In this document: in pieces, positions 26,206-57,697 of the stretch | Layout: each line of letters begins with the position of its first letter | How positions within the stretch are numbered: the stretch's first letter is position 1 | Assembly: GCA_045863235.1 (NCBI GenBank) | Contig: BTUM01000003.1 | Span: 32,001 to 96,000, forward strand | DNA from: Candidatus Xenobia bacterium | GTDB taxonomy: Bacteria > Vulcanimicrobiota > Xenobia > Xenobiales > QWHO01 | Length of the DNA: 64,000 nt | Direction of reading: 5' to 3' | Translations under genes and position numbers: made by a program | Notes under the pieces: model-generated | What the model was told of the DNA's origin: nothing | Seen by the model: the letters and a program-made list of their open reading frames with translations, nothing else | The model's database searches: none

Positions 26206-27471
26206 GTGATCCAACCCGATCGACGACATCTCGACGAGATGGCCCGAGTCTTCCCGCACGGCCTGCCATCGCCCGACCGGGCGGTCACTCCCGACGGAGC
26301 GCACACCGCCCACGTCGACGGTCCGAGGGTCTTCCTGGACGGGACCGAGATTTATGACGGCACGCGCGACGTTGATCCGGAGCGCGGCTTCTTCCCCTGC
26401 CCTAAAGTGGTGCCGGCCGTGGCCATCGCCAGCTCGGGCAAGGCGGTGTTGTTCCAGATACCCACTCCCATGGTGGTCGGGGGGGTGCCCATCAGCCTGG
26501 TGATGCGGGCCGAGTTGCAGCGGGGCTGGTTCGGCGGGCAGAAGGTCGAGGTATCGCCCATGGTCGAGCTCCCGGCCCAGGCTCAGGCGATGCAACTGCG
26601 CTCGGACGGCACCTTTGCTTATGCCCAGGGCGGCCAGATCTTCGAGAACCCTTCGGGCCAGGCCAGCGACTGGCAGGAGCGGGCCAGTTTTGGTCAGGAA
26701 GCGGTGCTGGGGTTCGACTACCTCCACGACGGCTCGCTGGCGGTCTGCACGGCAGCCGAGAACCGCGAGCTGCCGCGCTACTGGTTCGTTCCCGATGGGC
26801 AGACCCGGGGAGTGGAGGTGCCCCTGGAGCAGTTCGCCCCTCAGGGTCGTGAGCATTTCGACTGGCTGCGGCTGCGCTGGACCGGGATCGCTTTCGAGCA
26901 GATGGGGCAGTTCAAGCAACAAAATCCGGCTCTGTTCGATTCCGAAGGGATCCTTCGCCCCCACGCCGCCACCATCTCCCCCTCCGGCCGTCAGGCCCTG
27001 ATGGTCACCCTGGGCCAGGCGGGCCAGGCGCTCTTGTACGATGGCGCCAGCAAAACCTCGCGCGCGCTGGGCCAGATCGACGCCAATAAACTGGACCGGG
27101 CCTTCTGGGATGTCGACCGGCACCGGGCAGCCGTGCTGGTGGGAGAGGACCTGCACGTCTTCGATCTGGCCGGCCAGGACAGCATCGTGTTGCCCGGGCT
27201 GAGAGACGTCGGTTACGACAAGCGCGACGGTTCTTTGACCTTCCTGGCCCCGGGCCAGAGCGAGCCCATTCGGGTGGGAATTCACCAGGCCCACACGCAG
27301 CGCGAGGCGTCCTGGTGGAAGCCGGCCCACGACCAGTACCGCGAGCGACTGCAGGCGCACGTGCTGGGAGCGCAGCCCGAGAAAGCCGCCACCGGAATTC
27401 AAGAACAGGCGAGCAGCGTCTCTTTCGGGGGCACTCGCCTCAAACGGCGCGCCGCCTCCCCGGCAGGGTAG
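26206..27471 (+). CDS. Hypothetical protein (beta-propeller-like) with C-terminal GG-x-R motif
   Basis: 421 aa with typical codon usage; propeller-like segments (TISPSGRQAL, VGYDKRDGSLTF); ends GIQEQASSVSFGGTRLKRRAASPAG. Confidence 0.7.
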   Translation: MIQPDRRHLDEMARVFPHGLPSPDRAVTPDGAHTAHVDGPRVFLDGTEIYDGTRDVDPERGFFPCPKVVPAVAIASSGKAVLFQIPTPMVVGGVPISLVMRAELQRGWFGGQKVEVSPMVELPAQAQAMQLRSDGTFAYAQGGQIFENPSGQASDWQERASFGQEAVLGFDYLHDGSLAVCTAAENRELPRYWFVPDGQTRGVEVPLEQFAPQGREHFDWLRLRWTGIAFEQMGQFKQQNPALFDSEGILRPHAATISPSGRQALMVTLGQAGQALLYDGASKTSRALGQIDANKLDRAFWDVDRHRAAVLVGEDLHVFDLAGQDSIVLPGLRDVGYDKRDGSLTFLAPGQSEPIRVGIHQAHTQREASWWKPAHDQYRERLQAHVLGAQPEKAATGIQEQASSVSFGGTRLKRRAASPAG

Positions 27472-27527
27472 GACCAGAGGCCCGCTCCCCGAAGGGGCCC
27501 AGACAACTCTCGAGGAGGACCTGGCCC

Positions 27528-28136
27528 ATGAAGCTCTACACGAACCCCCGCTCGCGCGGCGTGCGCGTCCACTGGACCCTGGAGGAGCTGGGCGTGCCCT
27601 ACGAGCTGAAGGTCGTGGACATGGCCAGCGGCGAGCACAAGGGAGAGGCCTACCTGAAGATCCACCCCCTGGGCCAGGTGCCCGCTTTCGAGGAGGATGA
27701 CGGCCGCACCATGATCGAGTCGGGCGCCATCTGCGTCTACCTGGCCGACAAGTATCCCGAGAAGGGCCTTGGTCCAGGCAACCAGCCGGCCGAGTATTTC
27801 CAGTGGTGCTTCTACTGCTTTGGCTCGCTGGAGCCGCCCCTCATGGAGACGCTCATGCACACCCAGTGGCTGCCCGAGGACCAGCGCTCGGCTCCGGCGG
27901 CCGAGCGCTCGCAGGCCGCCCTCAAGAAGGTGCTGACCCACCTCGACACCCACCTGCACGGGCGCGAGTTCATGCTCGGCCAGCGCTTCAGCGTGGCCGA
28001 CATCCTGATCGGAGGCACCCTGCAGTGGGCCTCGCAGATGCTGCCGATGGGCGACTATCCGCACCTGCTCGCCTATATCAAGCGGCTCAACGGACGACCG
28101 GCGGTGCAGGCCGTCCACGCGGCCGCGGCCGTCTGA
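27528..28136 (+). CDS. Glutathione S-transferase family protein
   Basis: SRGVRVHWTLEELGVPYE, HPLGQVPA, ESGAICVYLADKY, FSVADI; GAGGAGG upstream. Confidence 0.93.
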   Translation: MKLYTNPRSRGVRVHWTLEELGVPYELKVVDMASGEHKGEAYLKIHPLGQVPAFEEDDGRTMIESGAICVYLADKYPEKGLGPGNQPAEYFQWCFYCFGSLEPPLMETLMHTQWLPEDQRSAPAAERSQAALKKVLTHLDTHLHGREFMLGQRFSVADILIGGTLQWASQMLPMGDYPHLLAYIKRLNGRPAVQAVHAAAAV

Positions 28137-28142
28137 CCTCTG

Positions 28143-28901
28143 GTGGGGGTTCTGTCGGAGGATACCAGCCCCGCGGCCGAGCAAGTTCTCATCCGGCTGT
28201 TGAGAGGCCGCACGGCCTGCGAGCGATTGCATCAGCTCCAGCAGAGCATCCGAGCCGGTCGTCAGCTGCAACAGATGGGCCTCAGGATGCGCCACCCTGA
28301 ATGGTCTCAGGAGCGCATCGAAGCGGAATCGGGAGGCAAGGACTGGATGCAAGCTGACCCTGTCCGTTTGCTGGTTCAGGTAGCCGACATCCTCGCCCGG
28401 TCAGGCATCGACTACTTTGCGACCGGCTCCATCGGCTCTACCCTGTATGGCGAGCCCCGCTATACTCAGGACATCGACCTGGTGGTCTCGCTGAAGCCAG
28501 AGCAGGCGGAAGCTCTCTTCCACCTGGTCGAAAAGGAGTTCTACGCCGACCTGGGCGCCATGCAAGAAGCGATCGCCCACGCGAGCAGCTTCAACTGGAT
28601 CCATCTGGCCACCAACTTCAAGGTCGACCTGCACGTGTCCCGAGGAGACGAGTTCGACCGCTCGCGGTTCGCTCGCTCGCGCGAAGCGGAGGGTTTCCTG
28701 GTAGCCTCGCCCGAGGACGTGCTGCTGGCCAAGCTGCGGTGGTACCGGCTGGGCGGTGAGGTCTCCGACCGCCAGTGGCGCGACATTCTGGGCATCATCC
28801 TGGTCCAGGCCGAGCGCCTCGATCCGGCTTACCTCGAGCACTGGGCCGCCAAGCTGGGGGTGTTGGACCTGCTCGAGCGGGCCCGGCAGCAAGCTGCCTG
28901 A
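28143..28901 (+). CDS. Nucleotidyltransferase-fold protein with small N-terminal helical module in frame
   Basis: TGSIGSTLYGEPRYTQDIDLVV, KVDL, ASPEDVLLAKLRWY, RQWRD, LDPAYLEHWA. Alternative start ATG at 28347. Confidence 0.75.
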   Translation: MGVLSEDTSPAAEQVLIRLLRGRTACERLHQLQQSIRAGRQLQQMGLRMRHPEWSQERIEAESGGKDWMQADPVRLLVQVADILARSGIDYFATGSIGSTLYGEPRYTQDIDLVVSLKPEQAEALFHLVEKEFYADLGAMQEAIAHASSFNWIHLATNFKVDLHVSRGDEFDRSRFARSREAEGFLVASPEDVLLAKLRWYRLGGEVSDRQWRDILGIILVQAERLDPAYLEHWAAKLGVLDLLERARQQAA

Positions 28902-28904
28902 GCG

Positions 28905-29564
28905 TCAGGGCCGAGGGTGCAGGATCAACAGCTCATCGGGCAACTCGTTGACATCGCCTTCCTGGTAGGGCAGGCGCTCTGACAGGAGCTCCGCGGCAGC
29001 TTCGATGGGGGCGATCAGCGCCTGCAGCCGCTGACCCTGGCGCAGCTGTTCCAGGGCCAGATCGCGCAGGCTCTTGAGCTCGTCCTCGGTCAGGGCGGCC
29101 CCCCCGTCGGCCAGCACCACCACCCGGCGCTCGAAGAGACTCAGGTAGATCAGCACCCCGCCGCCTTTGCGCGTGGAGCCGAGCCGGCGCTCAGCGAAGA
29201 CGTGCGAGGCGGCCCGGGCTGTCTCTTCGAGCATCTCGCGCGGGCCAACCAGGGGGGCGCGCAACCCCGGCACATACGTGCCCAGCAGGTTGCCAAGGAG
29301 GTAGCCCAGCACCACCCCGGCTCCCTGGTAGGCCAGCGGCACCGCCACCGGCTCCCAGGAGTCGCTTTGAAAGAAGAGTTGCAGCAAGCTCAGGGCCAAA
29401 AGAGAGCCGGCCAGGCCCAGGATGCCTTCGGCGCGGTCGTAGCGCCCAGACTCGCTGGCCACGGCGCAGACGATCTCGGCCGAGGTGCGCTTTTCGGCGG
29501 CGGCGATGGCCTGGCTGACCTGTCCGGTCTGAGCCGGGTCGAGGAAGGTGCGCGCGTTCACCAA
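28905..29564 (-). CDS. TPM-domain membrane protein
   Basis: AIAAAEKRTSAEIV, GVLIYLSLFERRVVVLAD, NELPD. Confidence 0.85.
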   Translation of the reverse strand: MVNARTFLDPAQTGQVSQAIAAAEKRTSAEIVCAVASESGRYDRAEGILGLAGSLLALSLLQLFFQSDSWEPVAVPLAYQGAGVVLGYLLGNLLGTYVPGLRAPLVGPREMLEETARAASHVFAERRLGSTRKGGGVLIYLSLFERRVVVLADGGAALTEDELKSLRDLALEQLRQGQRLQALIAPIEAAAELLSERLPYQEGDVNELPDELLILHPRP

Positions 29565-30418
29565 CTGCCGGTCGCTCCTCCGCCGCCACCGCTACTTCCC
29601 CACGAGCTGCCGCCCCAGGAGCTGCCGCCCGAGGAGGACGACAGGGTGATCCCGCGACTCCAATAGGGTCTCCTGCGGTTCTGCGGGGTCAGGAACGCAA
29701 ACACGATGACCAGGGCGACATACAAGACGACCGTGCAGAGCGCCACCACGATCACGAAGACTCCCAGCGCGCTGAACAGCAGACGCGTGCTGGCAGACTG
29801 AGAGAAGACGAAGCCTCCCGCCATCAGGGCAACACCCAACCCTACCAGCAAGATGGCATAAGGTCGAGGGATGTCGCTCATCGAGAAGATGGAGTTGGTT
29901 CGCTCGGTCAGCTCCTCCTGCCAGGGTCTTCCGGGGGGCGAGGCTCCCGGGCCTGCCTGCTGCATCTCGACCAACCGGTCAGTGCCCTGCCAGATTCCCT
30001 GGTCATAGGCGGAAGCTTTGAAGCTGGGCACGATGTCGTTCTCCATCACCCGCCGGCAGTGGCCGTCCCAGCGCTTGGGCCAGTTGCTGCCCAGTTGGAT
30101 GCGGCACTTGCGGTCGCCCACCGCCACCAGGAAGAGCACGTCCTGCGAGGCCAGATGCCAGCGCCGAAACCAGTCGGCGGCCAGGCTTTCCACGCTGCTG
30201 CTGCCGTAGGGCGCCATGCTGGCGATGGTGACGACCACCACCTCGCGATTCGTCTCCTGGTAGAGCTTCTGCAGCTTCGAATTGAGCTCTTTCTGGCGCG
30301 CGTCATCAAGCAGATTGGCGTAGTCGAAGACGGACACGTTGGGGGCCCGTAGCGGGAACTCGGCCAGAGCCCAGACGCCCACGCAGAGCGCCAGGGCCAA
30401 CAGCAGGCGCCGACTCAT
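29558..30418 (-). CDS. TPM-domain (DUF477/YgcG-like) protein
   Basis: Signal peptide, VFDYANLL, VVVVTI, VLFLVAVGDRK, IVPSFK, TM helices, GG-rich tail GGGGGATGSW. Confidence 0.88.
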   Translation of the reverse strand: MSRRLLLALALCVGVWALAEFPLRAPNVSVFDYANLLDDARQKELNSKLQKLYQETNREVVVVTIASMAPYGSSSVESLAADWFRRWHLASQDVLFLVAVGDRKCRIQLGSNWPKRWDGHCRRVMENDIVPSFKASAYDQGIWQGTDRLVEMQQAGPGASPPGRPWQEELTERTNSIFSMSDIPRPYAILLVGLGVALMAGGFVFSQSASTRLLFSALGVFVIVVALCTVVLYVALVIVFAFLTPQNRRRPYWSRGITLSSSSGGSSWGGSSWGSSGGGGGATGSW

Positions 30419-31476
30419 GCGCCGCGCTTCTTGATGCGCACGCCGCCCACGTTGAGCTGCCCGCCTTGCTCCTGGATTCCGGCGCTCTGGGCAGCCGATG
30501 GCTGGACGCGAACGATCTCTTCGTTGGCCGGGCGTTCATAGCGCTCGAGGGTCTCGGCGCCGGGCTGGCCACCCTGCAACTCGTCGGGTCTGAGCAGCAG
30601 GGGGATCTCCTCTCGCCCGCCGAGTCGGTCGCGGGCGTGCTCGCTCACGGAGTTGGGATCAAGCTCGGGCACTTGAGAGCGGTCCACGTGCAAGACGCCG
30701 TTCTCGTCAAGCCGGGCCGGCACGCGCACGTGTTCGAGCGTGCCCCGGGGCCAGGACTGACCCTTCTTGATGGGCGGGCGGTTCATGCGAAACTCGAACC
30801 CGAAGGCCTGGCCGTCCGGGGTGATCACGTAGGTATTGGCCACGTAGGCAAAGGGAAGCAGCGACTTCATGGCCTTGAGCTCGTCGGGAAGCACTCTCTC
30901 GTCGCTGCCGTTGAGGGAGGCACCGTGGCTCTTATCCACCAGAAAGATGGTTCCGTTGGGAGCGATTTCCTGGACCACCCCGGCCGAGGACCACTGGCTC
31001 AGAACCAGGCTGGAGTCCGCGTTGTAGGGGAGACGCTCGATGTGGGTCTCCTCGTAGCGCCGCGACGACCCGTCCGGCCTTTGAATCTCCAGGGCGCGCT
31101 CGGTCGAATGCTCCACCACCGATACGCCCGAGGTCAGGTCCACCCTCTGCTCGAGTTGCTCGTGCTTGGGCCGCAGGGCCTTCTCCACGACTTTGGCCTG
31201 CTCCTCGACGGTAAAGTTCTGGGGACCCTGAACCTCGGCAAAGAGGGCCTCGGGACCGGTCAGCGCGGTGGTGCGATGGGTGGACTCGGTGCCGTAGAAC
31301 AGCCCGGTCTCATGGACCTGACGGTGGTGCCGATCAACCACCGTGCGCTGGTCGCTGGTGGAGCGCAGTTCCTCGGAGGCCTGGTGAATCTGCTCGCGGC
31401 GCGCCTCCTCCTGCTCGAGCTTGCGCCGCTCCTCGAAGGTCAATTGGCGTGTCGGTCGCGGCCCCCGGATATTCAT
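30415..31476 (-). CDS. Hypothetical protein with C-terminal GG-V-R motif
   Basis: Start MNIRGPRP; ends AGIQEQGGQLNVGGVRIKKRGA; ATGA overlap with the TPM gene. Confidence 0.72.
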   Translation of the reverse strand: MNIRGPRPTRQLTFEERRKLEQEEARREQIHQASEELRSTSDQRTVVDRHHRQVHETGLFYGTESTHRTTALTGPEALFAEVQGPQNFTVEEQAKVVEKALRPKHEQLEQRVDLTSGVSVVEHSTERALEIQRPDGSSRRYEETHIERLPYNADSSLVLSQWSSAGVVQEIAPNGTIFLVDKSHGASLNGSDERVLPDELKAMKSLLPFAYVANTYVITPDGQAFGFEFRMNRPPIKKGQSWPRGTLEHVRVPARLDENGVLHVDRSQVPELDPNSVSEHARDRLGGREEIPLLLRPDELQGGQPGAETLERYERPANEEIVRVQPSAAQSAGIQEQGGQLNVGGVRIKKRGA

Positions 31477-31571
31477 CGCTAAATGATTCCACGCCGGAGA
31501 GCCGCCAGCCTGCTCAGATCCCCCATCTGTCCTATTGCTCCGCCCCACCAGGTTGAAGTACATTCCGCTGA

Positions 31572-32150
31572 GTGAACGTTCAGTCAACCAGAGCCGAGCG
31601 AGCCGAAGAACGCAAGGTCCAGCTGATCCAGCTGGCCATGACCCTGTTTGCCGAGGAGGGCTGGGCGGGCACGAGCATGCGCAAGCTGGCCCAGAGGGCC
31701 AGGGTGTCGCAGGGGCTGATCTACCACTACTTCAGCTCCAAGGAGGAGCTGCTCTTGCAGGTGGCCGACCACTACAGCCTGGCCCCCGTCCTGGGCAGCA
31801 TCGTTCAGGCTCAGGAGGGCAGACCGGTCCGCGAGGGCCTGTTGACCATCTGCCGCGAGCTCTACGCCCACCTTTGCGAGCGGCGCGACATCTACTGGAT
31901 CTTGTTCCGCGAAACCAACAACCATCCCGAGCTGTGCGCCCGGCTCGAAGGCACGCGCTGTGATTTCATCGAGCACCTGAAGGCTTACTTGCAGACCGGG
32001 ATCGAGGCGGGTGAGCTGAAGAGCCACAACAGCCAGGTTCTGGCCGAATGCCTGCTGCGGGTGCTGTTCCTGGCGAGCCTGGACTCGGATCCGCCCGAGC
32101 CGCTCATCGAGGTCTTCCTGGATGCCATTCTCGGAGGGCTGCTGCGTTGA
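31572..32150 (+). CDS. TetR/AcrR family transcriptional regulator
   Basis: AMTLFAEEGWAGTSMRKLAQRARVSQGLIYHYFSSKEELL helix-turn-helix. Confidence 0.93.
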   Translation: MNVQSTRAERAEERKVQLIQLAMTLFAEEGWAGTSMRKLAQRARVSQGLIYHYFSSKEELLLQVADHYSLAPVLGSIVQAQEGRPVREGLLTICRELYAHLCERRDIYWILFRETNNHPELCARLEGTRCDFIEHLKAYLQTGIEAGELKSHNSQVLAECLLRVLFLASLDSDPPEPLIEVFLDAILGGLLR

Positions 32151-39282: not shown

Positions 39283-39307
39283 TCCGAGGCCAGGCAAAGG
39301 CCATCCA

Positions 39308-44118: not shown

Positions 44119-44160
44119 CGGGCAAGCTTTCTTTCAGCCTTCCCGGCTAATCTGGTCAGG

Positions 44161-46410
44161 ATGGATAATCTGTCCCCCTTCCGCCAGGAGGCAGCCCGCG
44201 GCCATCGCGAGAGCCAGGCCTGTCGGCTCAAGTTCTGGAAGCGCGATCAGATCAATCTGGCCGAAGCCGAGCGCTCGCTGGACACTCTGGACACGCTCGG
44301 GCCCGATGAGGGCGAGCGGCGCGTGCTGGGCATGGCCCGGGCCGCCGCCCAGCCCCCGACCACCCGGCTCAAGGTCTTGCAGCACTCGCTCGGCGTTCTG
44401 GCCCACGGGGTCAGCGCCGACCTGGTGGGTCTGGCCGGGGTGGGCCTGGCCCTGCGCGACCTGGCCGGACCGACCACGGCCGCGCCGCTGGCCGCCCAGT
44501 TGCCCGACTCCGGCCTGCTGGGTCGGGTCGCTCCCGGGCCCGACTGGCTGCTTGCCAAGGCCGCCCGGCCCATGCCGACGACAGCGTCAGAGTGGGCCGC
44601 CACCCTGGCCGACGCTCCCGCGCGATCGGTGCGCATCGCCCTGGAGGAGCTGGGCGATCCGGCCTTCTCGCAGGCTCTGGACCAGCTGAAGCTGAGCCCG
44701 CAGGTGCGCGAGCAGCTCGACCGCCAGACGCTGAAGAGCCTGGACCTGCCCCTCACCCCGCCCCAACGGGTGGCCCGCTTCCTGGATATCAACGAGCTGC
44801 CTCCCAGCCAGGCCTGCCAGTTGGGCGACTTCATGCTGGCCGGATCGGAGGATCAGCCCGTCAAGCGCCTGGCCCTGGGCTTCCAGGAGGCTCCTGACGA
44901 GCAGCGCGCCATCGCCCTGAGGGCGGCCGCTCGGCAGCTCGATCAGCCCTTTGAGGTGAAGAAGGCGGTGCAAGACCTGCAGGGCGCGCCTCCCCGCGAG
45001 GTGGCCCGCGTGCTGGCCACGATCGAGCCCTCTCCCCAGCTCTCCCTGCTGACCCGGGTCAGCGACGAGAAGGCGGTGGCCGAGGGGCTGGGCGCGCTCG
45101 ACCTCAGGCCTTCCGCCCTGCTGGAGAAGCTCCGCCCGCTGCTGGCCCCATCCGAGACCATGGCCCTGGTGGATCGCTCCCACGATTTCCTGGCGGCCGT
45201 TCTGGCCACGCCCTGGTCGCAGGCCGAGGATCAGGCCCGGGTGGCCGTGGCCGGCTGGCAGGCCTTCGACCGCTCCCCCAGCCTGGCCGGGGCAGCCCTT
45301 TCCATGGCCCGGGCCACCCCCGACCTCAACCAGCGCCGCTACCTCTGCCGGGGAGCGCTCAAGGCCATGCAGCACCCGGTGGCCGACAAGCTGGAAGCCA
45401 TGACCCGTCTCTCCGGTCCCAACGCCGATTGGAGCCAGACGGCTCTAGCGATGGCCGCCCTGGCCGAGATCGACCGGCGCGGCGGCGAGCCACGCCCGGG
45501 AGCCCTGCTGGCCGTGGTCAGCCAGGCCGCCGCCAGCTGGGCCGGACCGGCCTGGCGCGGCCAGCTCGAGCAGTTCTTGCAGCAAGACCCCGACCTCGGC
45601 CCGGTGGCCCGCTCGGTGGGGAGCCTGGAGAGCCTGCACCTGGTGCTGGAGGATCGGTTGCTGGGATCGGCCGTGAGCGCCCCCGCTCCGGCCGCGGTGC
45701 GAGACACCGGCCAGGCCGTGCTGGTGGGCGGCGTCCGCCTGGAGAAGAAGAGCCCCACCGAGGGGATCGAGCTGGACCTGACCCCCTCCGCCAGAGCTCT
45801 CCCGCAAGTGCAGGCCCTCGACCTGGGCCCTCCCCCCACGCCCGGCACGAAGATCGAGGCTCGCTGGAAAGAAGGCTATAAGAGCGGGGTGGTGGTGATC
45901 TACAACCCCACCAGCGGCGTCTTCGAAGAGCACGAAAGCTACAAGAGCGGCGTGGCGGGGGTTTACAACCCGAAATCAGGCCAGGTGGAGTTCCGCGAGA
46001 GCTACAAGAGCGGGGTGGCCGGGGTCTACAACGTCCAGAGCGGTCAGACCGAGTGGCACGAAGCCTACAAGAGCGGCGTGGCAGGGGTCTACGTGGACGA
46101 CAAGGTGGTCTTCCGGGAGAGCTATAAAGGCTGCGTGGCAGGCATTCTGGAGCCCGGGGCCAGCCAACCCGAGTTTCGCGAGGCCTATAAGTCCGGCATC
46201 GCGGCCGTGCTCAACCCGGCCACCGGCAAGGCCGAATGGTCGGAGAGCTACAAGAGCGGCGTCGCCGGCCTCTACGACCCGGCCCGGGGCGCGGTGGACT
46301 TCCGCGAGAGCTACAAGAGCGGTCTGGCGGTGGCCAGCAGCGATCCCGAGCGACCCACCCTGGTCTCCCACTCGTTCCCTTACTGGGAGGACGAAGACCC
46401 TTACGACTGA
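44161..46410 (+). CDS. Large hypothetical protein: helical body, internal GG-V-R motif, C-terminal 21-aa repeat domain
   Basis: 749-aa ORF; AVRDTGQAVLVGGVRLEKK; eight ExYKSG repeats. Confidence 0.78.
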   Translation: MDNLSPFRQEAARGHRESQACRLKFWKRDQINLAEAERSLDTLDTLGPDEGERRVLGMARAAAQPPTTRLKVLQHSLGVLAHGVSADLVGLAGVGLALRDLAGPTTAAPLAAQLPDSGLLGRVAPGPDWLLAKAARPMPTTASEWAATLADAPARSVRIALEELGDPAFSQALDQLKLSPQVREQLDRQTLKSLDLPLTPPQRVARFLDINELPPSQACQLGDFMLAGSEDQPVKRLALGFQEAPDEQRAIALRAAARQLDQPFEVKKAVQDLQGAPPREVARVLATIEPSPQLSLLTRVSDEKAVAEGLGALDLRPSALLEKLRPLLAPSETMALVDRSHDFLAAVLATPWSQAEDQARVAVAGWQAFDRSPSLAGAALSMARATPDLNQRRYLCRGALKAMQHPVADKLEAMTRLSGPNADWSQTALAMAALAEIDRRGGEPRPGALLAVVSQAAASWAGPAWRGQLEQFLQQDPDLGPVARSVGSLESLHLVLEDRLLGSAVSAPAPAAVRDTGQAVLVGGVRLEKKSPTEGIELDLTPSARALPQVQALDLGPPPTPGTKIEARWKEGYKSGVVVIYNPTSGVFEEHESYKSGVAGVYNPKSGQVEFRESYKSGVAGVYNVQSGQTEWHEAYKSGVAGVYVDDKVVFRESYKGCVAGILEPGASQPEFREAYKSGIAAVLNPATGKAEWSESYKSGVAGLYDPARGAVDFRESYKSGLAVASSDPERPTLVSHSFPYWEDEDPYD
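45865..46340 (+). repeat. Eight in-frame ~63-bp repeats encoding [FW]xE[SA]YKSGVAGVYNPxSGxxE
   Basis: Directly visible, e.g. GAGAGCTACAAGAGCGG recurring in frame. Confidence 0.9.
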
Positions 46411-48659: not shown

Positions 48660-48721
48660 GGCAGCGTCCTCCTTGCGAGTGAGCGAGGCTTGTTCGCTCG
48701 CGGTGTCGAAGATTCCCTGCC

Positions 48722-50206
48722 ATGCAGCTTCGTCCCGTGTCGTTCCAGGCTCTCCCGACGTCAGCCAGCCCGGCGGCCTCTCCCTCGGCCGATGAGGGAC
48801 TGGCCCTGGAGCGCCTCGGGGACGACCGCGAGGAGCTCTCCCGCCTCAAGCGGCTGGCCCCGCCGGGCGCCTCGCTGGGCGAGCTGGCCTGCTTCCACCG
48901 GATGGGCCGAAAGCAGTCGGACGATTCGCTGTCCGGCTCGCTGCAGTGGGTTCAGGGCGCCCTGACCACGAGCGGGGGCGCGCTGGGCAAACTGTCGAGC
49001 CAAGACCGGGTGGAGGTGCTGCGCACCCTGCTCCAAGCCCACCCGGGTCAGCCCCTGGAAGCCCGCTTCCCGGGCGGCGAGTTGAGCGAGTTGAGCAAGG
49101 AAGTGGGACGCTTCATGAACGGCGATGCTCACTGTCTGCTGGGCGAGCAGCGCTACATGGTGCCCCTGACCCAGCCGCGTCGTCCGATTACCCTGCCGCA
49201 GGCTGCTCGGGACTACGCCGGAGCCCTCGAGCGCATCCTCAAGTCCCCCGGCCGCATCGATCCCCAGATGCAGCCCGACGACCGCGAGTGGGCCCTCGAC
49301 TGCGTGCGCATCGAGAACGCTCACCTGCACCAGGACCCGGCTCGGGTGAGCCTGTTCCGCAAGCTGGTCAGCGCCTTCCAGGATCCGGCCATCGCCCACG
49401 TGGTCATGATGGAGATGGAGAGCCTGCCACCGGCCCGGCAAAGCAACTATCTCACGACTCTGCAACACGAGATGGTCGGACTGGGACCCCACGAGAGCGA
49501 CTGGGAGAAGACCCGCAAGGAGGGCGCCCACGTCAAGGGCCTGGCGGCCGGCGTGCAGCTGGTGATGCAGGTGGCCCGGCCCGAGGACGACCCCTCGGCC
49601 CTGCTCGCCGAGCTGCGCGAGCTGGCCCACCGGCCCGGCAGCGACGACGAGCTGATTCGCGGGGGCGCCTGGCGTGGCCCCGGCCAGAGCTGGAGCCAGG
49701 GCCTGCAAAACGACCCTCGCACCGGGCTCAAGCACGAGGACGACCTGCGCCTGGCCGAGGCCGTCTACCAGCGCTCCAACGCTCGGGGAGAAGAGCACGG
49801 CGAGTTGCTCGAGCAGGTGAAGGGGTTCAGCTTCCGTCTGCACGAGCCCAACTACCTGTCGGTGATCGTCCACGCTCTCGGGCTGGATGAGCCCCTCGAG
49901 CAGGGCCTGGAGCGCACCGTTCGCGAGTATGAGATGACCGGCAAGGTGGACGCCCTCTCCCCCATCCGCAAGGAGATCAGCCAGGCCCTGGCCTCGGGCG
50001 CCGTCAAGGGCGACCTGGAAACGCTGATGAAGCGCTACGAGCTGATCTACGTGCAACGCACAACCGGGGGCGAGAACAAGGAGAAGGCCCTGCAGTCCTC
50101 CCTGGCCGAGCTGCTGGAGGTAGCCCAGCCCGCCAGGAGCGGGGTGGTGCAGACCAACGGGGCGGTTTGGGTGGGGGGCGTGCGGGTGCGCAAGGCGGGG
50201 TCCTGA
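48722..50206 (+). CDS. Hypothetical helical protein with C-terminal GG-V-R motif
   Basis: 494 aa; Pro/Ala/Ser-rich N-terminus; ends SGVVQTNGAVWVGGVRVRKAGS. Confidence 0.75.
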   Translation: MQLRPVSFQALPTSASPAASPSADEGLALERLGDDREELSRLKRLAPPGASLGELACFHRMGRKQSDDSLSGSLQWVQGALTTSGGALGKLSSQDRVEVLRTLLQAHPGQPLEARFPGGELSELSKEVGRFMNGDAHCLLGEQRYMVPLTQPRRPITLPQAARDYAGALERILKSPGRIDPQMQPDDREWALDCVRIENAHLHQDPARVSLFRKLVSAFQDPAIAHVVMMEMESLPPARQSNYLTTLQHEMVGLGPHESDWEKTRKEGAHVKGLAAGVQLVMQVARPEDDPSALLAELRELAHRPGSDDELIRGGAWRGPGQSWSQGLQNDPRTGLKHEDDLRLAEAVYQRSNARGEEHGELLEQVKGFSFRLHEPNYLSVIVHALGLDEPLEQGLERTVREYEMTGKVDALSPIRKEISQALASGAVKGDLETLMKRYELIYVQRTTGGENKEKALQSSLAELLEVAQPARSGVVQTNGAVWVGGVRVRKAGS

Positions 50207-50314
50207 GCTCTCGGTCGCCAGACTCCGGCGCGACGCGATGATGGCCAGATCCTCGACCAGGGCTCCGAGCTGACGGGCGGGAACCCGGCTAGACTGTGGG
50301 GAAGGGCTCTTTTC

Positions 50315-50713: not shown

Positions 50714-50726
50714 GCTTGAAGCCTTC

Positions 50727-51113
50727 ATGACCGAGCTTGCGGCCACCTTCCCCGACGAGGTGGACTTTGTGGTGCTCTTCGGCTCGGCCGCCCGTCAAGA
50801 AGCCGGGCGCGGCAGCGATCTCGATCTGCTGATCGGATTGACCCGAGAGTCCTCCGAGCGTTTCCTCGAAAGGCTGGAACGCTTCAATGATCTGGCTCCC
50901 GGGGTGGAAGTCTTTCCTTACACTCCGAGCGAGCTCGCCCTGATGCGGCAACAACTGCACTTTACTTTGCTGGAGGCGGCCGATCACGGTCGCGTGCTCT
51001 TTGACCGCGGCTCCTGGCAGGCATTGGCCAACGAGCTTCGCAGCCTGGTGGAATCGGGGGATGTGATCAGGATTCCGGGCGGCTGGCATCGTCCGATTCT
51101 GCTCAAGGACTGA
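50727..51113 (+). CDS. Minimal nucleotidyltransferase (MNT) partner of HEPN
   Basis: VVLFGSAARQEAGRGSDLDLLI, VEVFPYTPSE, HGRVLF. Start may be the TTG at 50679. Confidence 0.87.
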   Translation: MTELAATFPDEVDFVVLFGSAARQEAGRGSDLDLLIGLTRESSERFLERLERFNDLAPGVEVFPYTPSELALMRQQLHFTLLEAADHGRVLFDRGSWQALANELRSLVESGDVIRIPGGWHRPILLKD

Positions 51114-51230
51114 GCAGCATTCAGCCGGGGAAACGAAACCGCGTGAATCCGCCACACGCCGTCGCCCGTTGAATCGCAGGGAACTCGAGTCGCAGGAGGC
51201 CATCCTCCCGGCCCGAAACAGCCTCAACCG

Positions 51231-52880
51231 ATGTCCAACGGAAGAATCCCCGTCCACTTCAACGGGGAAACCTATCAAGTGCCGGAGGGCACCTCGATCG
51301 TCGAGGTTCTGGGGCAGATCTACGTCGACGAGCACGGCGTGCTGGCCGCCACCCTGAACAACCACCTGGTCTCCCTGCACACACGGCTGGACGGTGAATC
51401 CTACCTGCAAGCCGTCACCGCCGAGCACCGGGAGGGACAGGAGATCTTGCGGCGCACGGCCGCCCACATGCTCCAGTACCTTTGCCAGACTCACTTCCCC
51501 GGGGTCCGTCTGACGGTGGGACAGTCCTTGCTGGGAGGCTACTTCTACGAGGTCGATAGCTCCGAGCCGGTCAATCTGGAAGCCATGGCATCGCGCCTGA
51601 CCACCCTGTTCCAGGAGCTCGCCGAGGCCGATGTGAGCTTTCGTCACAGTGTCGTCTCGGTGGAGGCGGTGCCCACCCGGGTGGAGGATCCCTACGGCTA
51701 TCGCAAAGGTCTTCTGCGCGCCTGGGCCAGTGCGGTGGTGCACCTGATCAGCCTTGACGGCTTTACCGATCTGCAGCATGGACCCTACGCCCCCACCACC
51801 CGACACGCCAAAGGCTGCCGTGTCATCGCCTATCCGCCCGGGCTGATCCTGCTCTTTCCGGGCTCGGTGATCACCTCGCCCATCCCCTGCGGCGTCGACT
51901 CTCGCCGCCTCTACGAGGCCTACCGCGAGACGCGCGACTGGAACCGGCTGGTGGGTGTGACCTCGGTGGGCGATCTGAACGCCGCCAGCCTCGAGGATCG
52001 CATTCCCCAGGTCGTGTTGATGGCCGAGGCCCTGCACGAGAAGAAGCTGGCCGAGATCGCCGACACCGTGACCGCCCTCGAGCAGACTCCACGCATCGTC
52101 TGCGTGGCCGGTCCTTCCTCCTCGGGCAAGACCACCTTCGTGAAGCGACTGGCGGTGCAGCTGCAGGTCAACGGGCTGAGGCCCATTCTGGTCTCCCTGG
52201 ACGACTACTACCTCGACCGCCAGCAAACCCCGCGCGATGAGCACGGCGACTTCGATTTCGAGACCATCGAGGCCCTCGACCGTGCCCTGATCGCCGAGCA
52301 GGTGGCCGCTCTGGCAGCTGGCCAGCCAGTACGGCTCCCTCGCTTCGACTTCGTACTCGGCCAGCGTAAGAACGAAGGGCTGGAAGTGCAGCTGCGGCCC
52401 CAGGACGTGCTGGTGCTGGAGGGAATCCACGCCCTCAACCCCGAGCTCTTGCCCGGGGTGAATCCCTTCCGCATCTTCGTTTCGGCTCTCACCCAGCTGG
52501 TGATCGACGAGCGCAACCGGGTCTTCACCTCGGACGCACGCCTGCTGCGCCGCCTGGTGCGCGACCGGCGCTACCGGGGCACCTCGGCGGCCGAGACCAT
52601 CGAGCGCTGGCCCAAGGTGCGAGCCGGCGAGGAACGCTGGATTTTCCCTCACCAGGAGCGGGCTGACGCCATCTTCAACTCCACCCTGGTCTACGAGACC
52701 ACGGTGCTCAAGCCGTTTGCCTGGCGCTACCTGCTGGAGGTGCCTCGCAGCCACCCTTCCCGGGTGCGGGCCTACGAGCTGTTGCACTTCCTGGACCTGT
52801 TCGTGCCCGTCTTCCCGGACCGAATTCCGGCCAACTCGGTGCTGCGCGAGTTCATCGGCGGCAGCGGATTCGAGGAGTGA
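51231..52880 (+). CDS. Uridine/nucleoside kinase family protein with TGS/ThrRS-like N-terminal region
   Basis: VAGPSSSGKTT Walker A, SLDDYY, LEGIHALN, RLLRRLVRD, IFNSTLVYE, SVLREFIGGS; N-terminal RRTAAHML and GYFYE are ThrRS-like. Confidence 0.9.
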   Translation: MSNGRIPVHFNGETYQVPEGTSIVEVLGQIYVDEHGVLAATLNNHLVSLHTRLDGESYLQAVTAEHREGQEILRRTAAHMLQYLCQTHFPGVRLTVGQSLLGGYFYEVDSSEPVNLEAMASRLTTLFQELAEADVSFRHSVVSVEAVPTRVEDPYGYRKGLLRAWASAVVHLISLDGFTDLQHGPYAPTTRHAKGCRVIAYPPGLILLFPGSVITSPIPCGVDSRRLYEAYRETRDWNRLVGVTSVGDLNAASLEDRIPQVVLMAEALHEKKLAEIADTVTALEQTPRIVCVAGPSSSGKTTFVKRLAVQLQVNGLRPILVSLDDYYLDRQQTPRDEHGDFDFETIEALDRALIAEQVAALAAGQPVRLPRFDFVLGQRKNEGLEVQLRPQDVLVLEGIHALNPELLPGVNPFRIFVSALTQLVIDERNRVFTSDARLLRRLVRDRRYRGTSAAETIERWPKVRAGEERWIFPHQERADAIFNSTLVYETTVLKPFAWRYLLEVPRSHPSRVRAYELLHFLDLFVPVFPDRIPANSVLREFIGGSGFEE

Positions 52881-52884
52881 TTTG

Positions 52885-54060
52885 ATGACCACCGTCGTCC
52901 TGCACGATCCGCAAGTGGCTCGCAACTTTCCCGTGCAGCTTCCGCTCGACAGCGTGGGCGCTTCGCGAGCCAATACCACCGGCTGCAAGACCTGCGGCAG
53001 CCCGCTCGAGGAAGTCTTGATCACCACCTTCAGCAGCCCTGTCTGGGACGAGTGGCCTCTGGCCGTGGATGGCTGGAGCTGCCGCACCTGCCAGAGCCTG
53101 CAGCTGCCTCGCTTTCTGGAGGCCGAGGAGGTCGAGCGGCTGAGCTCGGAAGGGGCCCAGGCCGTGCGCTCGGGCCACTTTGCGGAAGCCGAGCTGGCCT
53201 TCCGCCGCATCTGCAACAGCTGGCCCCGCTACGGGCCGGGCCGTGAGAACCTGGCCCGGGCCCTGCAGTACTGGCTGGCCCACGAAGAGGAGTCAGGCCG
53301 GGAAGCGCTCGTGAGCCGGCTGGCCGGCGAGATCGAGCGCCAACTGCGCGACGCTCTGGAAGGCGACGGCCTGGCTTCGCGCCTGTCGGTCGTGTCCGGT
53401 CTGGTCAACTGCCTGCTGCGCCGCGAGGACACGGCTGCCGCCCTGGCCCTGCTCGCCCAGGAGCTGTCGCGCCCCGAAGCCGAGAGCTCAAAGCTCCAGG
53501 AGCTGCGGGTCTGGGTCGAGGACCGGGGCGACCTTTACCATCGCGGGGTGGCCCTGCTCGAGCCTCGCATCGCGCTCCACGAGCGTCCTCAGGATGGCGG
53601 CCAGGCTCAGATCAAGCAGGGCATCGCGCTGCTCGAGCGTCACCTCGAGGCTGCTCCCGAGAACTGGCCGGCCATGTGGTTCGCGGGCAAGGGCTACCAG
53701 GCCCTGGGCCAGAACGAACGGGCCCTGGAGCATTTCCGGCGCTGCCTGGCCCTCAAGGCCGACCAGAGCGACGTGGCCCGCGAGTGCGCCATCACGCTGA
53801 TGAAGCTGGGTCGCTTCGCCGAGGCCATCGAAGTCTCGCGCCAGGCCTGCCAGAGCGAGCCCGGAGAGGGCGGCCTGCAGGCCAACCTGGCCATCGCCTG
53901 CCTGCTGGGCGGTCAGCTCGAGCCGGCTCTGGAGGCTGCCCGCCGGGCAGTCGAGCTGGATGGCTCGGACGCGATCAGCGCCAGCGTGCTCAAGCTGGTG
54001 CAGGACGTGCGCGAAGGGCGGCTGCCGCCACCCACCTCGGCCGCCCAACTGGGGTTCTAG
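52885..54060 (+). CDS. Zinc-finger + TPR repeat protein
   Basis: CKTC...CRTC; TPR units (WFAGKGYQALGQNERALEHFRRCLALK; LMKLGRFAEAIE; ANLAIACLLGG). Confidence 0.82.
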   Translation: MTTVVLHDPQVARNFPVQLPLDSVGASRANTTGCKTCGSPLEEVLITTFSSPVWDEWPLAVDGWSCRTCQSLQLPRFLEAEEVERLSSEGAQAVRSGHFAEAELAFRRICNSWPRYGPGRENLARALQYWLAHEEESGREALVSRLAGEIERQLRDALEGDGLASRLSVVSGLVNCLLRREDTAAALALLAQELSRPEAESSKLQELRVWVEDRGDLYHRGVALLEPRIALHERPQDGGQAQIKQGIALLERHLEAAPENWPAMWFAGKGYQALGQNERALEHFRRCLALKADQSDVARECAITLMKLGRFAEAIEVSRQACQSEPGEGGLQANLAIACLLGGQLEPALEAARRAVELDGSDAISASVLKLVQDVREGRLPPPTSAAQLGF

Positions 54061-54265
54061 AGGCCCCCGAGAGCGTGGACCGGACTTCCAGTTAGCGATT
54101 GCCTGGATCCAGGCAGTCTGCACAGCCCTCCGCGAAGGAGTTTGCCGCCAGATCGGACCAGCGAGTTCAGCCTTCAAACTGACTCAAAACAGATCCCCGA
54201 CCGACACATTCTGGAAGTAGAATCGGCTGGTGCGCAACAGCTTGATCTACTTGGATTGTTCTTCG

Positions 54266-55225
54266 ATGGGCTCTGCCGTGCGGCGACGGAAGCGCTGGCT
54301 GGCAGCGCTCGTGCTGCTCGGATTGATCTATTTGGTGGTCAGCCTGATCGACCTGTATCGAGGCCCGTTGCGGCACCGCCCTCTTCAGGTCGGCCACAAC
54401 GCCGTCTGGCTGGCCCACCGGTTCTTCGACGACCGCGACCGCAACAAGGTCAGCGGCCTCGAGTTGCGGGAACTGGCTGGGCGCGTGAAAGAGCACAACC
54501 TGGAGTATCTCTTTGTCCACGTGGGACCGCTCGACTCCCAGGGCGCCATTCCATCCTATCGGTCCGAGCATTTCCAGCGGGTGAAGTCACAGGTGCCCGG
54601 GACGCGTTGGTTGGCATGGGTGGGTGGACTCAACGCAGACTTCGAGGGACGCGCCCAGGATACCGTGGACCTGACGTTGCCCGAGACACGGACCGGAATC
54701 GCCCGAACGGTCCGCGAGCTCTATGCGGCAGGCTTCGACGGCATCCACTACGACATCGAGCCGGTTCGTGACGGCGATAGGAGCTTTCTGGCTTTGCTGG
54801 ATGAGACTCCCCGCGACGGCATTCTGTCGGTGGCCACGCCTCACATGCGGCCCCCGGGAGCCTGGCCCGTGCCTCCGTTCGAGCGGATGTGGACCGCCGG
54901 CTACTACGGCGAGGTGTCCCGGCGCTGCGATCAGGTCGTCTACATGGGCTACGACAGTGCCCAGCCCTCCGCCGAAGCCTACGCCCGCTGGATGCGCTGG
55001 CAGGTGCTCTCGCTCAAAGCCTGCCTGGAATCGCAGGAACTGCTGATCGGCGTTCCGACCTACGATGAGGAGAGCACGCTGGTGCACAACCCGCAGGCGG
55101 AGACACTGGCGGCCGCGTTGTGGGGTATCAGCTCAGCCGGCCCGGTTGATGGCGTGGCCCTGTATGCTCACTGGACCACGACTCCCTCGGAATGGGACAC
55201 TCTGGCCGGCTTTCGCGGGAAATAG
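54266..55225 (+). CDS. Membrane-anchored GH18-like TIM-barrel glycoside hydrolase
   Basis: N-terminal TM helix; GFDGIHYDIEP (variant of DGxDxDxE); VYMGYD; IGVPTY. Confidence 0.75.
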   Translation: MGSAVRRRKRWLAALVLLGLIYLVVSLIDLYRGPLRHRPLQVGHNAVWLAHRFFDDRDRNKVSGLELRELAGRVKEHNLEYLFVHVGPLDSQGAIPSYRSEHFQRVKSQVPGTRWLAWVGGLNADFEGRAQDTVDLTLPETRTGIARTVRELYAAGFDGIHYDIEPVRDGDRSFLALLDETPRDGILSVATPHMRPPGAWPVPPFERMWTAGYYGEVSRRCDQVVYMGYDSAQPSAEAYARWMRWQVLSLKACLESQELLIGVPTYDEESTLVHNPQAETLAAALWGISSAGPVDGVALYAHWTTTPSEWDTLAGFRGK

Positions 55226-55464
55226 ACCCTCCTGGCCGGAGCTCGTGCCTGGGCAGTCTTTACCGGTTCTGACCCGGTACCGCCCTGATTCCGGCGTATA
55301 CCCCGGAGTCAGCCCGGTACCGGGAGATTACTGCGTAAACTCCTCGGATTTCCGCGTGACTGCTTACGGACTCAACCCCCGATGGTACGTGGCGGGCCAG
55401 TTTTTCGAAGAAAGTACACAACTTCTCCATCCCCGGGCGAACCGCTCCGCCTATACTGCCACCC

Positions 55465-56982
55465 ATGCAGATCGCATCCAGGCTGGCCAGCATGGCCCCG
55501 CCAGGGGCCCGTCCCACGCTGGTTCGCCCGCAAGAGCAGAGCGAGCCGGTGGATCGCGTGCAGCTCAGCTCCCGTGAAGCCGAGCCTGGCCGCAAGATCC
55601 ACCCGGCCGTGGGCCTGGCCACCGGGCTGATGGCCGCCCTGTCTCTGGCCGGGGCGCTGGCCGCGCCGGCCCAGGCCGGGGCCTGGAACCAGCCGGTGGC
55701 GGCCCAGTCCTTCGAGTTCGACCAGTTCGGACACGGGGGCAGCAAGCTCCAGTTCCCGGGCCACGGCATCGAGCACCATCACGGCGGCAACTGGGACCGC
55801 GAGACGGTGGAGGGCGGCTGGCGCATCCCCCGCAACGAGAGCCCCATTCGGGTGCAGCCCCGGCACGCCTACCAGGTGAGCGTGGGGACCTCCGACATGG
55901 GGCCGGCCCGCGTGCTCGACAACACCCGCGGGCGCATCCAGGCCGTGCGCCTGCAGTGGCCGGCCGAGTCCGACCCGCGGGCAGCCCGGGCCCACGAGGC
56001 GATGTTCCGCGACCTGCTCACCAAGTTGCCCACTGATGTGCGCTTCGAGATCGTGGTCGAATCGGGTGGGGAGTCAGCTTTGCGCCAGCTGATCGCCCAG
56101 AGCCGGGTGACCAATCCCGAGCGCATCGAGCTGCACACCATGGGCCTTCGCTCCAGCCGCGAGGAGCTCTACCAGGGCATGAGCATGTGGTCGCGCGACG
56201 GGGCGGTGGTGCTCACGCGCGAGTCGGACGGACGCGAGGTGGTGCTCCTCCCCCACTCGTTCCGCAACGACGGCAAAGTGGACGAGTACCTCAACCGGAT
56301 CATCTGGCAGGGAACCGGGGCCGCTCCGGCCAGCCTGGTGAACCATCCCGGCATCCTGGTGCGCCGCTCCACGCTCGACTTCGAGGGCGGCAACGTGGTG
56401 GCCAACGGACGCCACGTGCTGCTCAGCCACGACACCATCTCCGACAACGCCCGCCGGCTCAATCTCACCTCTGAGCAAGTGGTGGCGCGCTTTGAAACCG
56501 AGTTCGGGCGCCAGGTGATCGTGGCCAACGAGACCGACTTTCACCTCGACCTGGGGGTTGGCTTCCTGGACGACCACACCGTCACCGTGGCCTCCCCGGC
56601 CCTGGCCCGGAGCGTGAGCGGGTTGCCCGCAAGCGAGCTGGAGACCATGCGCGAGGTGACCCGCGAGAAAGACCTGCAGGGCCGCTACGACCGACTGGCC
56701 GAGACGCTGGCTCAGAAGGGCTACCGGGTGGTGCGCATGCCCAACCTGGGCGGGCGCAGCCTCTCCAGCCCCTACCTGACCTACCAGAACGTGCTGATCG
56801 AGAGCTACCAGGGGGTCAAGCGGGTCTACATGCCCGTCTACGGGGCCAGCACCGACCGGGCCGCGCGCCAGGCTTACGAGGCGGAGGGGTTCGAGGTGGT
56901 GGAGATTCCGGCTGCCCTGCTCTCGACCCGGCTCGGAGGCGGCATCCGCTGCGCCGTGGGCGAGTTGGACATCCTCCAGTAA
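55465..56982 (+). CDS. Pentein (amidinotransferase/deiminase) superfamily enzyme with long N-terminal leader
   Basis: WSRD, FEGGNV, FHLD, TYQN, GGGIRC catalytic pattern. Confidence 0.8.
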   Translation: MQIASRLASMAPPGARPTLVRPQEQSEPVDRVQLSSREAEPGRKIHPAVGLATGLMAALSLAGALAAPAQAGAWNQPVAAQSFEFDQFGHGGSKLQFPGHGIEHHHGGNWDRETVEGGWRIPRNESPIRVQPRHAYQVSVGTSDMGPARVLDNTRGRIQAVRLQWPAESDPRAARAHEAMFRDLLTKLPTDVRFEIVVESGGESALRQLIAQSRVTNPERIELHTMGLRSSREELYQGMSMWSRDGAVVLTRESDGREVVLLPHSFRNDGKVDEYLNRIIWQGTGAAPASLVNHPGILVRRSTLDFEGGNVVANGRHVLLSHDTISDNARRLNLTSEQVVARFETEFGRQVIVANETDFHLDLGVGFLDDHTVTVASPALARSVSGLPASELETMREVTREKDLQGRYDRLAETLAQKGYRVVRMPNLGGRSLSSPYLTYQNVLIESYQGVKRVYMPVYGASTDRAARQAYEAEGFEVVEIPAALLSTRLGGGIRCAVGELDILQ

Positions 56983-57000
56983 TGTGTTGGGCGTTACGTA

Positions 57001-57073
57001 CTGAAGGTTTTGCCTTTCCTTCGGAGGCGCCTCCATACAAGTCTGTCGGCGCCAGTTACTGCAAAACCTTCAG
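57001..57073. repeat. 13-bp perfect inverted repeat enclosing an inner palindrome, between convergent genes
   Basis: CTGAAGGTTTTGC (57001-57013) / GCAAAACCTTCAG (57061-57073); inner GGAGGCGCCTCC. Confidence 0.75.
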
Positions 57074-57088
57074 CACTCCACTTTGATC

Positions 57089-57697
57089 TTAGAAGAGCGA
57101 GCGCTTGTCTTCCATGGGACGCTTGGGCACCCTGATCCCACCCACGACGACCGCGTTGGACTGCTCGCTGACCCCGCCCGGCGTGGGAGGCTTCAAGAGG
57201 CGTTGCAGCTCGTCGATCTGAGCTTCCTCCTTGCGCAGGGCGGCCTCGGCTTCGTGCATCTGAGCCACTGCCCCCTGGTGGGCCGCTGCCAGGGACGTGA
57301 CCTGGCCCTGCTGGGCGTAAAAGCGATTGACCAGCGCGTCGTGCTCGGCTCGCATTCGAGGACCCTTGACCTTCCAGGTCTCGATGCCCACGACGCAGGC
57401 GGCGCAGGTGGCAAAGCCCACCAGGCTGATGCCCGCCAGCCAGGGATTGTGCAGAATGACGCCGGCGTTGACGGTGCCCATGCCCACCATGAAACTGCCC
57501 ATCCCAACCATGGGCATCAAGTTGCGCACCTTCACCCAGCGATTGATCTTGTTGGCCTGCTTGTCAGCCTCGGCCGCCTTCTGGTTGCAGCTGATGGTGG
57601 CTTGGTCGACCGCCTGACGCTTCTCCTCGACGTTGCGAGCAGCCCGAGCATACGCTTCGCGAAGGGTATCAAGGTTGGCTGTGGCGGTAACCTTCAT
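57089..57697 (-). CDS. Coiled-coil / two-TM / coiled-coil protein with C-terminal GG-I-R motif
   Basis: Helical N-terminus, hydrophobic hairpin (LMPMVGMGSFMVGMG...WLAGISLVGFATCAACVVGI), coiled coil, then GVSEQSNAVVVGGIRVPKR. Confidence 0.78.
   Translation of the reverse strand: MKVTATANLDTLREAYARAARNVEEKRQAVDQATISCNQKAAEADKQANKINRWVKVRNLMPMVGMGSFMVGMGTVNAGVILHNPWLAGISLVGFATCAACVVGIETWKVKGPRMRAEHDALVNRFYAQQGQVTSLAAAHQGAVAQMHEAEAALRKEEAQIDELQRLLKPPTPGGVSEQSNAVVVGGIRVPKRPMEDKRSLF

Follow-up and report, generated by a model that had tools for sequence, protein, structure and literature searches.

Five otherwise dissimilar proteins encoded in a 64,000-nucleotide stretch of a Candidatus Xenobia bacterium genome (contig BTUM01000003.1, positions 32,001 to 96,000; hereafter the window) share a 19-residue segment, the tag, which in four of them forms the tail of the protein. 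Across the 8.36-Mb, 97.6% complete genome to which the window belongs (G000), 175 genes carry such a tail, about 2.6% of the approximately 6,745 called genes. We propose, with a probability of about 45%, that a chaperone or sorting adaptor in the producer cell docks on this tail, which would single out one cargo class for a type III machine that has no motor and derives from the flagellum.

The five copies were pointed out in an earlier note made from the sequence of this DNA alone, and each of its segments is the exact translation at the coordinates and on the strand given below. The note placed four copies within 10 residues of the C-terminus, in agreement with the counted distances to the stop codon for copies 1, 2, 4 and 5; copy 3 lies 219 residues from it.

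26206-27471, plus strand: host 1, a 421-residue open reading frame (ORF), beta-rich orphan; an ATG start is possible at 26239
27394-27450, plus strand: tag copy 1, 6 residues before the stop
30415-31587, minus strand: host 2, an orphan ORF; start likely near 31476, with a probable leader of the M-N-I type
30424-30480, minus strand: tag copy 2, 2 residues before the stop
44161-46410, plus strand: host 3, 749 residues, with a helical region, the internal tag and then a repeat domain
45694-45750, plus strand: tag copy 3, internal, 219 residues before the stop
48722-50206, plus strand: host 4, a 494-residue helical orphan with a Ser/Pro/Ala-rich, type III-like leader
50141-50197, plus strand: tag copy 4, 2 residues before the stop
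57089-57697, minus strand: host 5, 202 residues, with a coiled coil, a hydrophobic segment and a second coiled coil
57119-57175, minus strand: tag copy 5, 9 residues before the stop; strands predicted at positions 9-11, 15-18 and 21-24 of the tag fragment

None of the five hosts matches a Pfam family at E 0.01 or an NCBIfam family near its cut-off. Host 1 has one paralogue in G000 and one 65%-identical relative, both tagged, while host 3 is one of four paralogues; in the other three, too, a similar repeat domain comes after an internal tag. Between copy 4 and its orthologue in genome G004, the tag is 79% identical and the body 53%. With 5 copies against 1.4 expected (p = 0.013), the window is richer in tags than the genome average. 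Contigs from four runs of RNA data cover the whole stretch flat and low, and no claim on expression is drawn from them. The nearest language-model neighbours of host 4 are SctW gatekeepers (score 0.89), which we take as a lead only; a Pfam HrpJ match is absent.

Copy number, conservation and predicted fold of the tag

A profile of the five segments was run on the 108,809 six-frame segments of G000, with reversed sequences as the control. It gives 60 matches of at least 10 bits (56 of them within 25 residues of the stop, all with coding-like GC content at third codon positions) and 4 in the control. Iterated with no positional filter, the profile yields 161 matches of at least 15 bits, 154 of them C-terminal, against 1 in the control, and 179 of at least 10 bits, 171 of them C-terminal, against 5. 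The large copy number and C-terminal bias that the earlier note expected are thus found genome-wide. When the 50 C-terminal residues of 5,521 called genes are scored, 175 genes reach at least 10 bits, versus 1 in internal decoy windows; this figure, from which an FHA-like protein end (13.6 bits) and two other non-tag matches had been removed, is a count and not an independent test, the profile having been trained on the same genes.

The tag follows the pattern G/A-V/I-x-E-x-x-D/G-x-V-x-V/I-G-G-V-x-V/L-R/K/P-R/K-R. A median of 3 residues come after the conserved Arg, and the final residues are variable. At least 7 of the 179 copies are internal, lying 170-320 residues inside their proteins, and tandem copies occur as well, so that a free C-terminus is not needed; such copies count against signals that require a free end. 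The linker ahead of the tag, described in the earlier note as Ala/Pro-rich, is indeed enriched about twofold in Pro, but equally in Gly and Ser, and only slightly in Ala. The top-scoring copy stands in a 41-residue frame that holds little beyond a tag (G000:C71:29549-29671, L014:12081-12203) and may be a remnant or a free tag peptide.

At the DNA level, the five window segments have 19-34 of 57 bases in common. Identical residues across the 161 tags use the same codon in 47.5% of cases, not far from the 40-41% obtained when codons are resampled from genome usage, in agreement with the view that the peptide, and not the DNA, is constrained. In 17 best-match pairs of relatives, the tags are 71% identical, compared with 52% for the bodies and 39% for the linkers. 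These pairs come from 20 G004 regions and P0008 (four regions gave no pair), and 15 of the 17 were chosen by tag score, which inflates tag identity. The two pairs chosen otherwise go in the same direction (tag 79% versus body 53%, and 84% versus 65%).

AlphaFold2 predicts three short strands for an alignment of 90 tags, with a mean predicted local distance difference test (pLDDT) of 79. In the full-length model of a tagged propeller (27-row alignment, pLDDT 86), whose body matches BamB-type propellers, a helix and a linker precede a three-stranded tail at pLDDT 86-89. The tag is predicted to be a small three-stranded sheet with one hydrophobic face, on which the conserved valines, to judge by their spacing, would be placed together. 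A role of the tail as the propeller-closing strand was ruled out, given the helix and linker before it in the model and its presence on non-propeller hosts. The hydrophobic pattern of Class I chaperone-binding motifs, Phi-X1-4-Phi-x-Phi, is found in 86% of the 90 tags and in 50% of random windows, and is too generic to be informative. A fold search with a 30-residue model, which gave one match at Z 2.2 among 48,161 chains, is uninformative as well. An Atlas search of the tail returned zero usable matches, and a complex prediction of three tag copies (score 0.02, against a mark of 0.42) is not used as evidence. The tail may also bear some likeness to TonB-box strands.

The earlier note had allowed that the motif might belong to a domain already described, and for this we find no family in Pfam, NCBIfam or the PDB. 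No Pfam or NCBIfam entry matches more than 1 of the 90 tags (best E 0.047), and no PDB sequence falls below E 0.5. PTPA-CTERM and PAAR each touch a single tag of the 90, at E 0.13 and 0.12; we read the PAAR match, like the FHA-like one, as generic hairpin likeness. In line with the note's statement that no transmembrane helix follows the motif, a hydrophobic 19-mer is found in the last 45 residues of 0 of 175 tails, and the LPxTG and PEP motifs are likewise absent from all 175. Neither RTX repeats nor R-X7-R-X-R-X-R, the pattern of type IV C-terminal signals, occurs in any of the 175.

The first profile matches 20 of 251 Vulcanimicrobiota genomes, 14 with several copies and 6 with one. Three of the six single-copy matches, lying outside the tagged lineages, were checked; all are internal, 51-141 residues from the stop, and are chance matches. 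Among 30 loci from five distant genomes, the matches listed for 29 lie no more than 28 residues from the stop, mostly on propellers. At 14 propeller loci of three genomes at first tag-negative, five G013 proteins end, by eye, in a diverged tail, and three proteins with Sec- or lipoprotein-like leaders end without one. A wider profile finds 43 and 42 matches in the two genomes of genus g5 and 0-1 in 35 others. A search against 1.84 billion representatives yielded no more than 6 proteins, and its power is too low to delimit how far the tag extends beyond the phylum.

The g5 tails, C-terminal at all 29 loci examined, differ in charge from those of the genus of G000. Their mean net charge is -4.2 (n = 29) versus +2.0 (n = 90), and none of the 29 is net positive, compared with 87% of the 90, while the hydrophobic pattern is kept. 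Of the beta-hairpin plus basic tail envisaged in the earlier note, the beta structure is thus retained, as three predicted strands, and the basic end drops out as a defining part.

These features bear on the idea that the tail is a degradation tag, clearing unexported, self-harmful cargo from the cytoplasm. The basic residues near the end and the few residues beyond the conserved Arg recall ClpX-type C-terminal signals. The variable final residues, the internal copies, the acidic variant and the predicted folded sheet with its conserved glycines all speak against such a tag, which we consider very improbable.

Host proteins, their leaders and the export machine

With the tags masked, 162 hosts fall into 92 BLAST groups, 60 of which have no relative in the genome, and the dissimilarity noted for the five window hosts extends to the whole set. 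A Pfam scan of 169 hosts finds 24 propellers, 5 MAM domains and 1 HD domain, and leaves 139 without a match. A hydrophobic segment is present in 35 of the 175 hosts, and 27 are small proteins of the membrane-hairpin type. The sole tagged protein with an enzyme domain (G000:C81:27944-29644, L043:1-1701) is HD-GYP-like behind a low-complexity leader.

The start sites used to examine the leaders come from gene calling made for this analysis. A Sec-like leader, as judged by crude hydropathy, is present in 0 of 156 tagged genes and in 906 of 5050 others, which extends genome-wide the lack of Sec signals reported for the window hosts. A D-x-V-x-L-S-like motif, known from flagellar substrates such as FlgM, occurs near the start of 28 of 156 tagged genes and 202 of 5050 others (p = 1e-10; internal control, 8 of 156). 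A cross-validated classifier separates the leaders of tagged genes with an area under the curve of 0.85, and the FliK- and FlgC-like proteins of the machine described below are among its top 130 untagged genes. A score of at least 3 is reached by 81 of the 175 tagged genes and by 362 untagged ones. The uncleaved, low-hydrophobicity start of the type III kind is a statistical enrichment in tagged genes; such signals are degenerate, and two of the window hosts score low.

Untagged candidates with the same leader differ in content. Enzyme domains (subtilase, clostripain, carboxypeptidase, lipase, deiminase and others) are found in 20 of 43 of them, compared with 1 of 169 tagged hosts. The 43 were taken from 97 chosen candidates and include several classifier false positives, such as FliI; a cautious count of 12 of 43 still differs from 1 of 169 at p = 1e-8. 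Within a larger class of leader-bearing proteins, the tag therefore sets apart a subset with few enzymes. Subtilases with MAM domains form an expanded family on many G000 contigs (for example L202:1-2187) and have type III-like leaders in place of Sec signals; all are untagged among the matches listed, and the MAM domain also occurs in tagged large proteins. Another untagged, leader-bearing protein (G000:C1:277117-278124, L208:1-1008) has a Pfam ATLF-type metallopeptidase domain.

The earlier note allowed for an export signal, besides a cargo-loading or assembly signal. As several hundred untagged proteins share the type III-like start and at least 7 of 179 copies are internal, the tail is more plausibly an additional label, carried by one class among the likely type III substrates.

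A candidate machine for such substrates is encoded in G000, which has one complete flagellar-type export cluster (FlhA, FlhB, FliP/Q/R, FliI/H/J, FliF/G/M/N).

G000:C27:54351-80164 (L025/L026): export cluster, with two FliQ, two FliN and tandem genes for a protein of 66-81 residues

The export gate passes the cut-off for FlhA and stays below those for SctV. The tandem genes, which come after the export cluster and encode what we call the small subunit, occur in 53 of the 251 genomes of the phylum, with relatives in records of Acidobacteriota and Kiritimatiellia. Neither flagellin nor MotA was found in G000, and its three secretin matches are on contigs other than that of the cluster. By the markers tested, the machine thus appears to be no motility flagellum, flagellin and MotA not being found, and no injectisome, the SctV cut-offs being unmet and the secretin unlinked.

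Multi-copy tags are found in 16 genomes, all of them among the 53 that carry the small subunit, and the search for co-distributed secretion genes that the note had proposed finds this flagellum-derived type III marker in all 16. Some tagged genomes (G000, G001, G049 and G073) lack flagellin and MotA, so that the tag is not tied to motility.

Other routes were looked for in five tagged genomes, 96-100% complete (G000, G073, G049, G026 and G053). VirD4 (PF02534), VipB of type VI systems and a phage-type sheath (PF05943, PF04984) were found in none of the five, which leaves the contractile injection suggested in the note without its machinery. HlyD-like adaptor matches occur in all five, but each stays below the cut-off of TIGR01843. 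G000 also has loci of the type II-like and type IV pilus kinds, although these routes would need Sec leaders. We regard it as quite unlikely that the tail is itself the export signal of a type I-like or undescribed route. Its C-terminal position, the missing Sec leaders, the many HlyD-like adaptors of G000 below the type I cut-off and the secretin matches would suit such a signal. It would have to accommodate the internal copies, the absence of RTX and vir-type Arg patterns (0 of 175), the failure to find VirD4, VipB, a sheath or a type I adaptor that passes its cut-off in any of the five genomes, and hosts whose leaders are common to untagged proteins.

G000 also encodes five stand-alone proteins made of the FlhA cytoplasmic domain (FlhA-C), at G000:C80:28015, C3:26976 (5 kb before the window), C1:377670, C106:14866 and C107:13661; relatives have up to 19 matches.

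Two further proteins of the window lack the tag.

55465-56982, plus strand: untagged protein with a deiminase fold (PAD_porph) and a type III-like leader as in tagged hosts
57781-58599, minus strand: untagged beta-repeat protein with a leader of the same type III-like kind, directly upstream of host 5

The beta-repeat family includes the proteins at G000:C30:39182 and C102:12460, which are untagged and have type III-like leaders. The strand-turn-strand spacing of its repeat equals that of the first half of the tag.

A hairpin-forming repeat of 105 base pairs, flanked by two convergent stop codons, lies at positions 56983-57087 of the window; it is present in 11-15 copies in G000 and in dozens in G001-G003, and cleanly absent from the contigs of runs X1 and X2. 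Because of this distribution, it looks like a polymorphic miniature mobile element. A repeated DNA element as the source of the tails was ruled out by codon use, and this repeat stands near a tagged 3' end in just 1 of 11 copies. A second short intergenic repeat (55273-55324) has 21 matches in G000. Two large proteins that look exported are encoded at positions 20029-25440, one a GH81 glucanase and the other a metallophosphoesterase-GH16-like fusion.

Possible role of the tail

In the docking reading, the hosts would be exported through the type III machine by way of their N-terminal leader. A multi-cargo partner would bind the tail by adding it to its own beta-sheet, and would hold back or prioritise the mostly non-enzymatic cargo (beta-propellers, helical-repeat proteins and small membrane-hairpin proteins), while hydrolases would travel without a tail. 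The cargo might then act on a prey or host cell.

The charge flip, with the hydrophobic pattern kept, fits a partner in the producer that co-evolves with the tail, and counts against one conserved anionic target. It thus bears directly on a role in the target cell, where the tail would direct proteins, once delivered, either to anionic membranes or to some conserved protein of the prey or host. In the genus of G000 the tail is amphipathic and mostly basic, and a hydrophobic segment is found in some of the hosts; a predatory life has been proposed for relatives on the basis of gene content (PMC9259500). The strongly acidic g5 tails, with their fold pattern kept, disallow a single anionic target unless the prey differ, and we think this role unlikely.

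Somewhat less doubtful is that the hosts are type III substrates whose tail acts after export, as a dockerin-like clip that joins them to one another or to a scaffold of the producer, such as a contact patch, a surface layer or the tip of a pilus. Most of the data that favour docking would fit such a clip, including the shortness of the module, its Pro/Gly/Ser linker, the occasional tandem or internal copies, a lineage-specific charge code and a mostly non-enzymatic cargo with 24 propellers and 5 MAM proteins among 169. The tail would also leave the channel last and could fold at once. Neither receptor domain repeats nor a scaffold gene was found near tagged genes, where the gene neighbours alone were looked at, and the small membrane-hairpin hosts (27 of 175) suit a surface scaffold poorly.

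Several observations weigh against the docking of a producer-cell partner. No reader of the tail was found: a comparison of the core clusters shows no tag-specific gene among the matches listed, no chaperone family recurs among the neighbours of tagged genes, and CesT was not found in G000. YbjN-fold proteins, with 7 matches in G000, occur also in the tag-negative genera g2 and g4; none was found in G049, which is tagged, and their charge does not flip. Tagged G073 and untagged g3 have an equal two FHIPEP matches, and the stand-alone FlhA-C paralogues therefore do not track the tag. By the profiles used, of which the wider one was run on only part of the set, 37 of the 53 machine-bearing genomes have no multi-copy tag, and the co-distribution of tag and machine is confounded by kinship. 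The leader signature is weak, just 81 of 175 tagged genes scoring at least 3 and the hosts at 26206 and 44161 scoring below zero.

A broader proposal is more tentative. Vulcanimicrobiota may have arrived, independently of the injectisome, at a second protein-injection machine, which would be non-motile, derive from flagellar parts and use a two-address cargo code. A shared N-terminal leader would serve for entry, and a C-terminal three-stranded module, read by a receptor with a lineage-specific charge code, would single out some 175 non-enzymatic effectors for prey delivery or contact-site assembly. The literature searched, which leaves out most subscription papers, contains no description of the tail or of the machine, and secretion is not mentioned in the available part of PMC11484240.

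For lack of a conserved signal, type III substrates are hard to predict; in this genome, a sharply defined module of 19 residues picks out about 2.6% of the proteome. The tag provides a list of candidate effectors, 139 of the 169 scanned hosts being without a Pfam match, and a bait for the sorting receptor. Its basic and acidic versions amount to a natural swap experiment and, if it is a transferable docking module, it would make a very small engineering tag.

Comparison with known systems

The tag shares its C-terminal position, its high copy number and, in this genus, its basic end with LPXTG, PEP-CTERM and GlyGly-CTERM tails and with type I and type IV C-terminal signals. It differs from the first three in having no membrane helix, as the earlier note had argued, and no Sec leader, LPxTG or PEP motif, and from type I and IV signals in having no RTX repeats, vir-type Arg pattern or coupling protein. 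Type II substrates need prior Sec or Tat export, whereas 156 tagged genes have no hydrophobic leader, although a type II-like locus is present.

Dockerins are calcium-binding helical domains of about 70 residues on Sec-exported enzymes. Like the dockerin of a dockerin-cohesin pair, the tag is a small terminal module on a flexible linker, shared by many unrelated proteins and probably recognized in a lineage-specific manner. In contrast, it is a 19-residue beta module on non-Sec, mostly non-enzymatic hosts, with no scaffold near the tagged genes. For type III substrates, the export apparatus is present in the G000 cluster.

Within type III systems, the tag resembles the Class I chaperone-binding beta-motif and the CesT-extension motif, which are also short and beta-forming, found in unrelated type III substrates, separate from the N-terminal signal and carried by a subset only. 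The CesT site of Tir from enteropathogenic Escherichia coli is a known case that, like the tag, is C-terminal and hairpin-like; this C-terminal beta-motif binds CesT and is required for translocation (PMC6114900). The known motifs are nearly always N-terminal and degenerate, whereas the tag is a strongly conserved, C-terminal segment of 19 residues in about 175 proteins; moreover, G000 has no CesT match, and its machine is flagellum-derived and not an injectisome.

The FlgN, FliS and FliT systems share with the present one their flagellar descent and the combination of an N-terminal export signal with a C-terminal site, bound there by chaperones that dock at FlhA (PMC8527033). The chaperones themselves are helical, have one or two structural subunits as clients and attach to disordered tails; the tag, on the other hand, is one beta module across 92 unrelated groups. 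The tail likely works like a multi-cargo chaperone-binding motif, and it lies outside every catalogued family.

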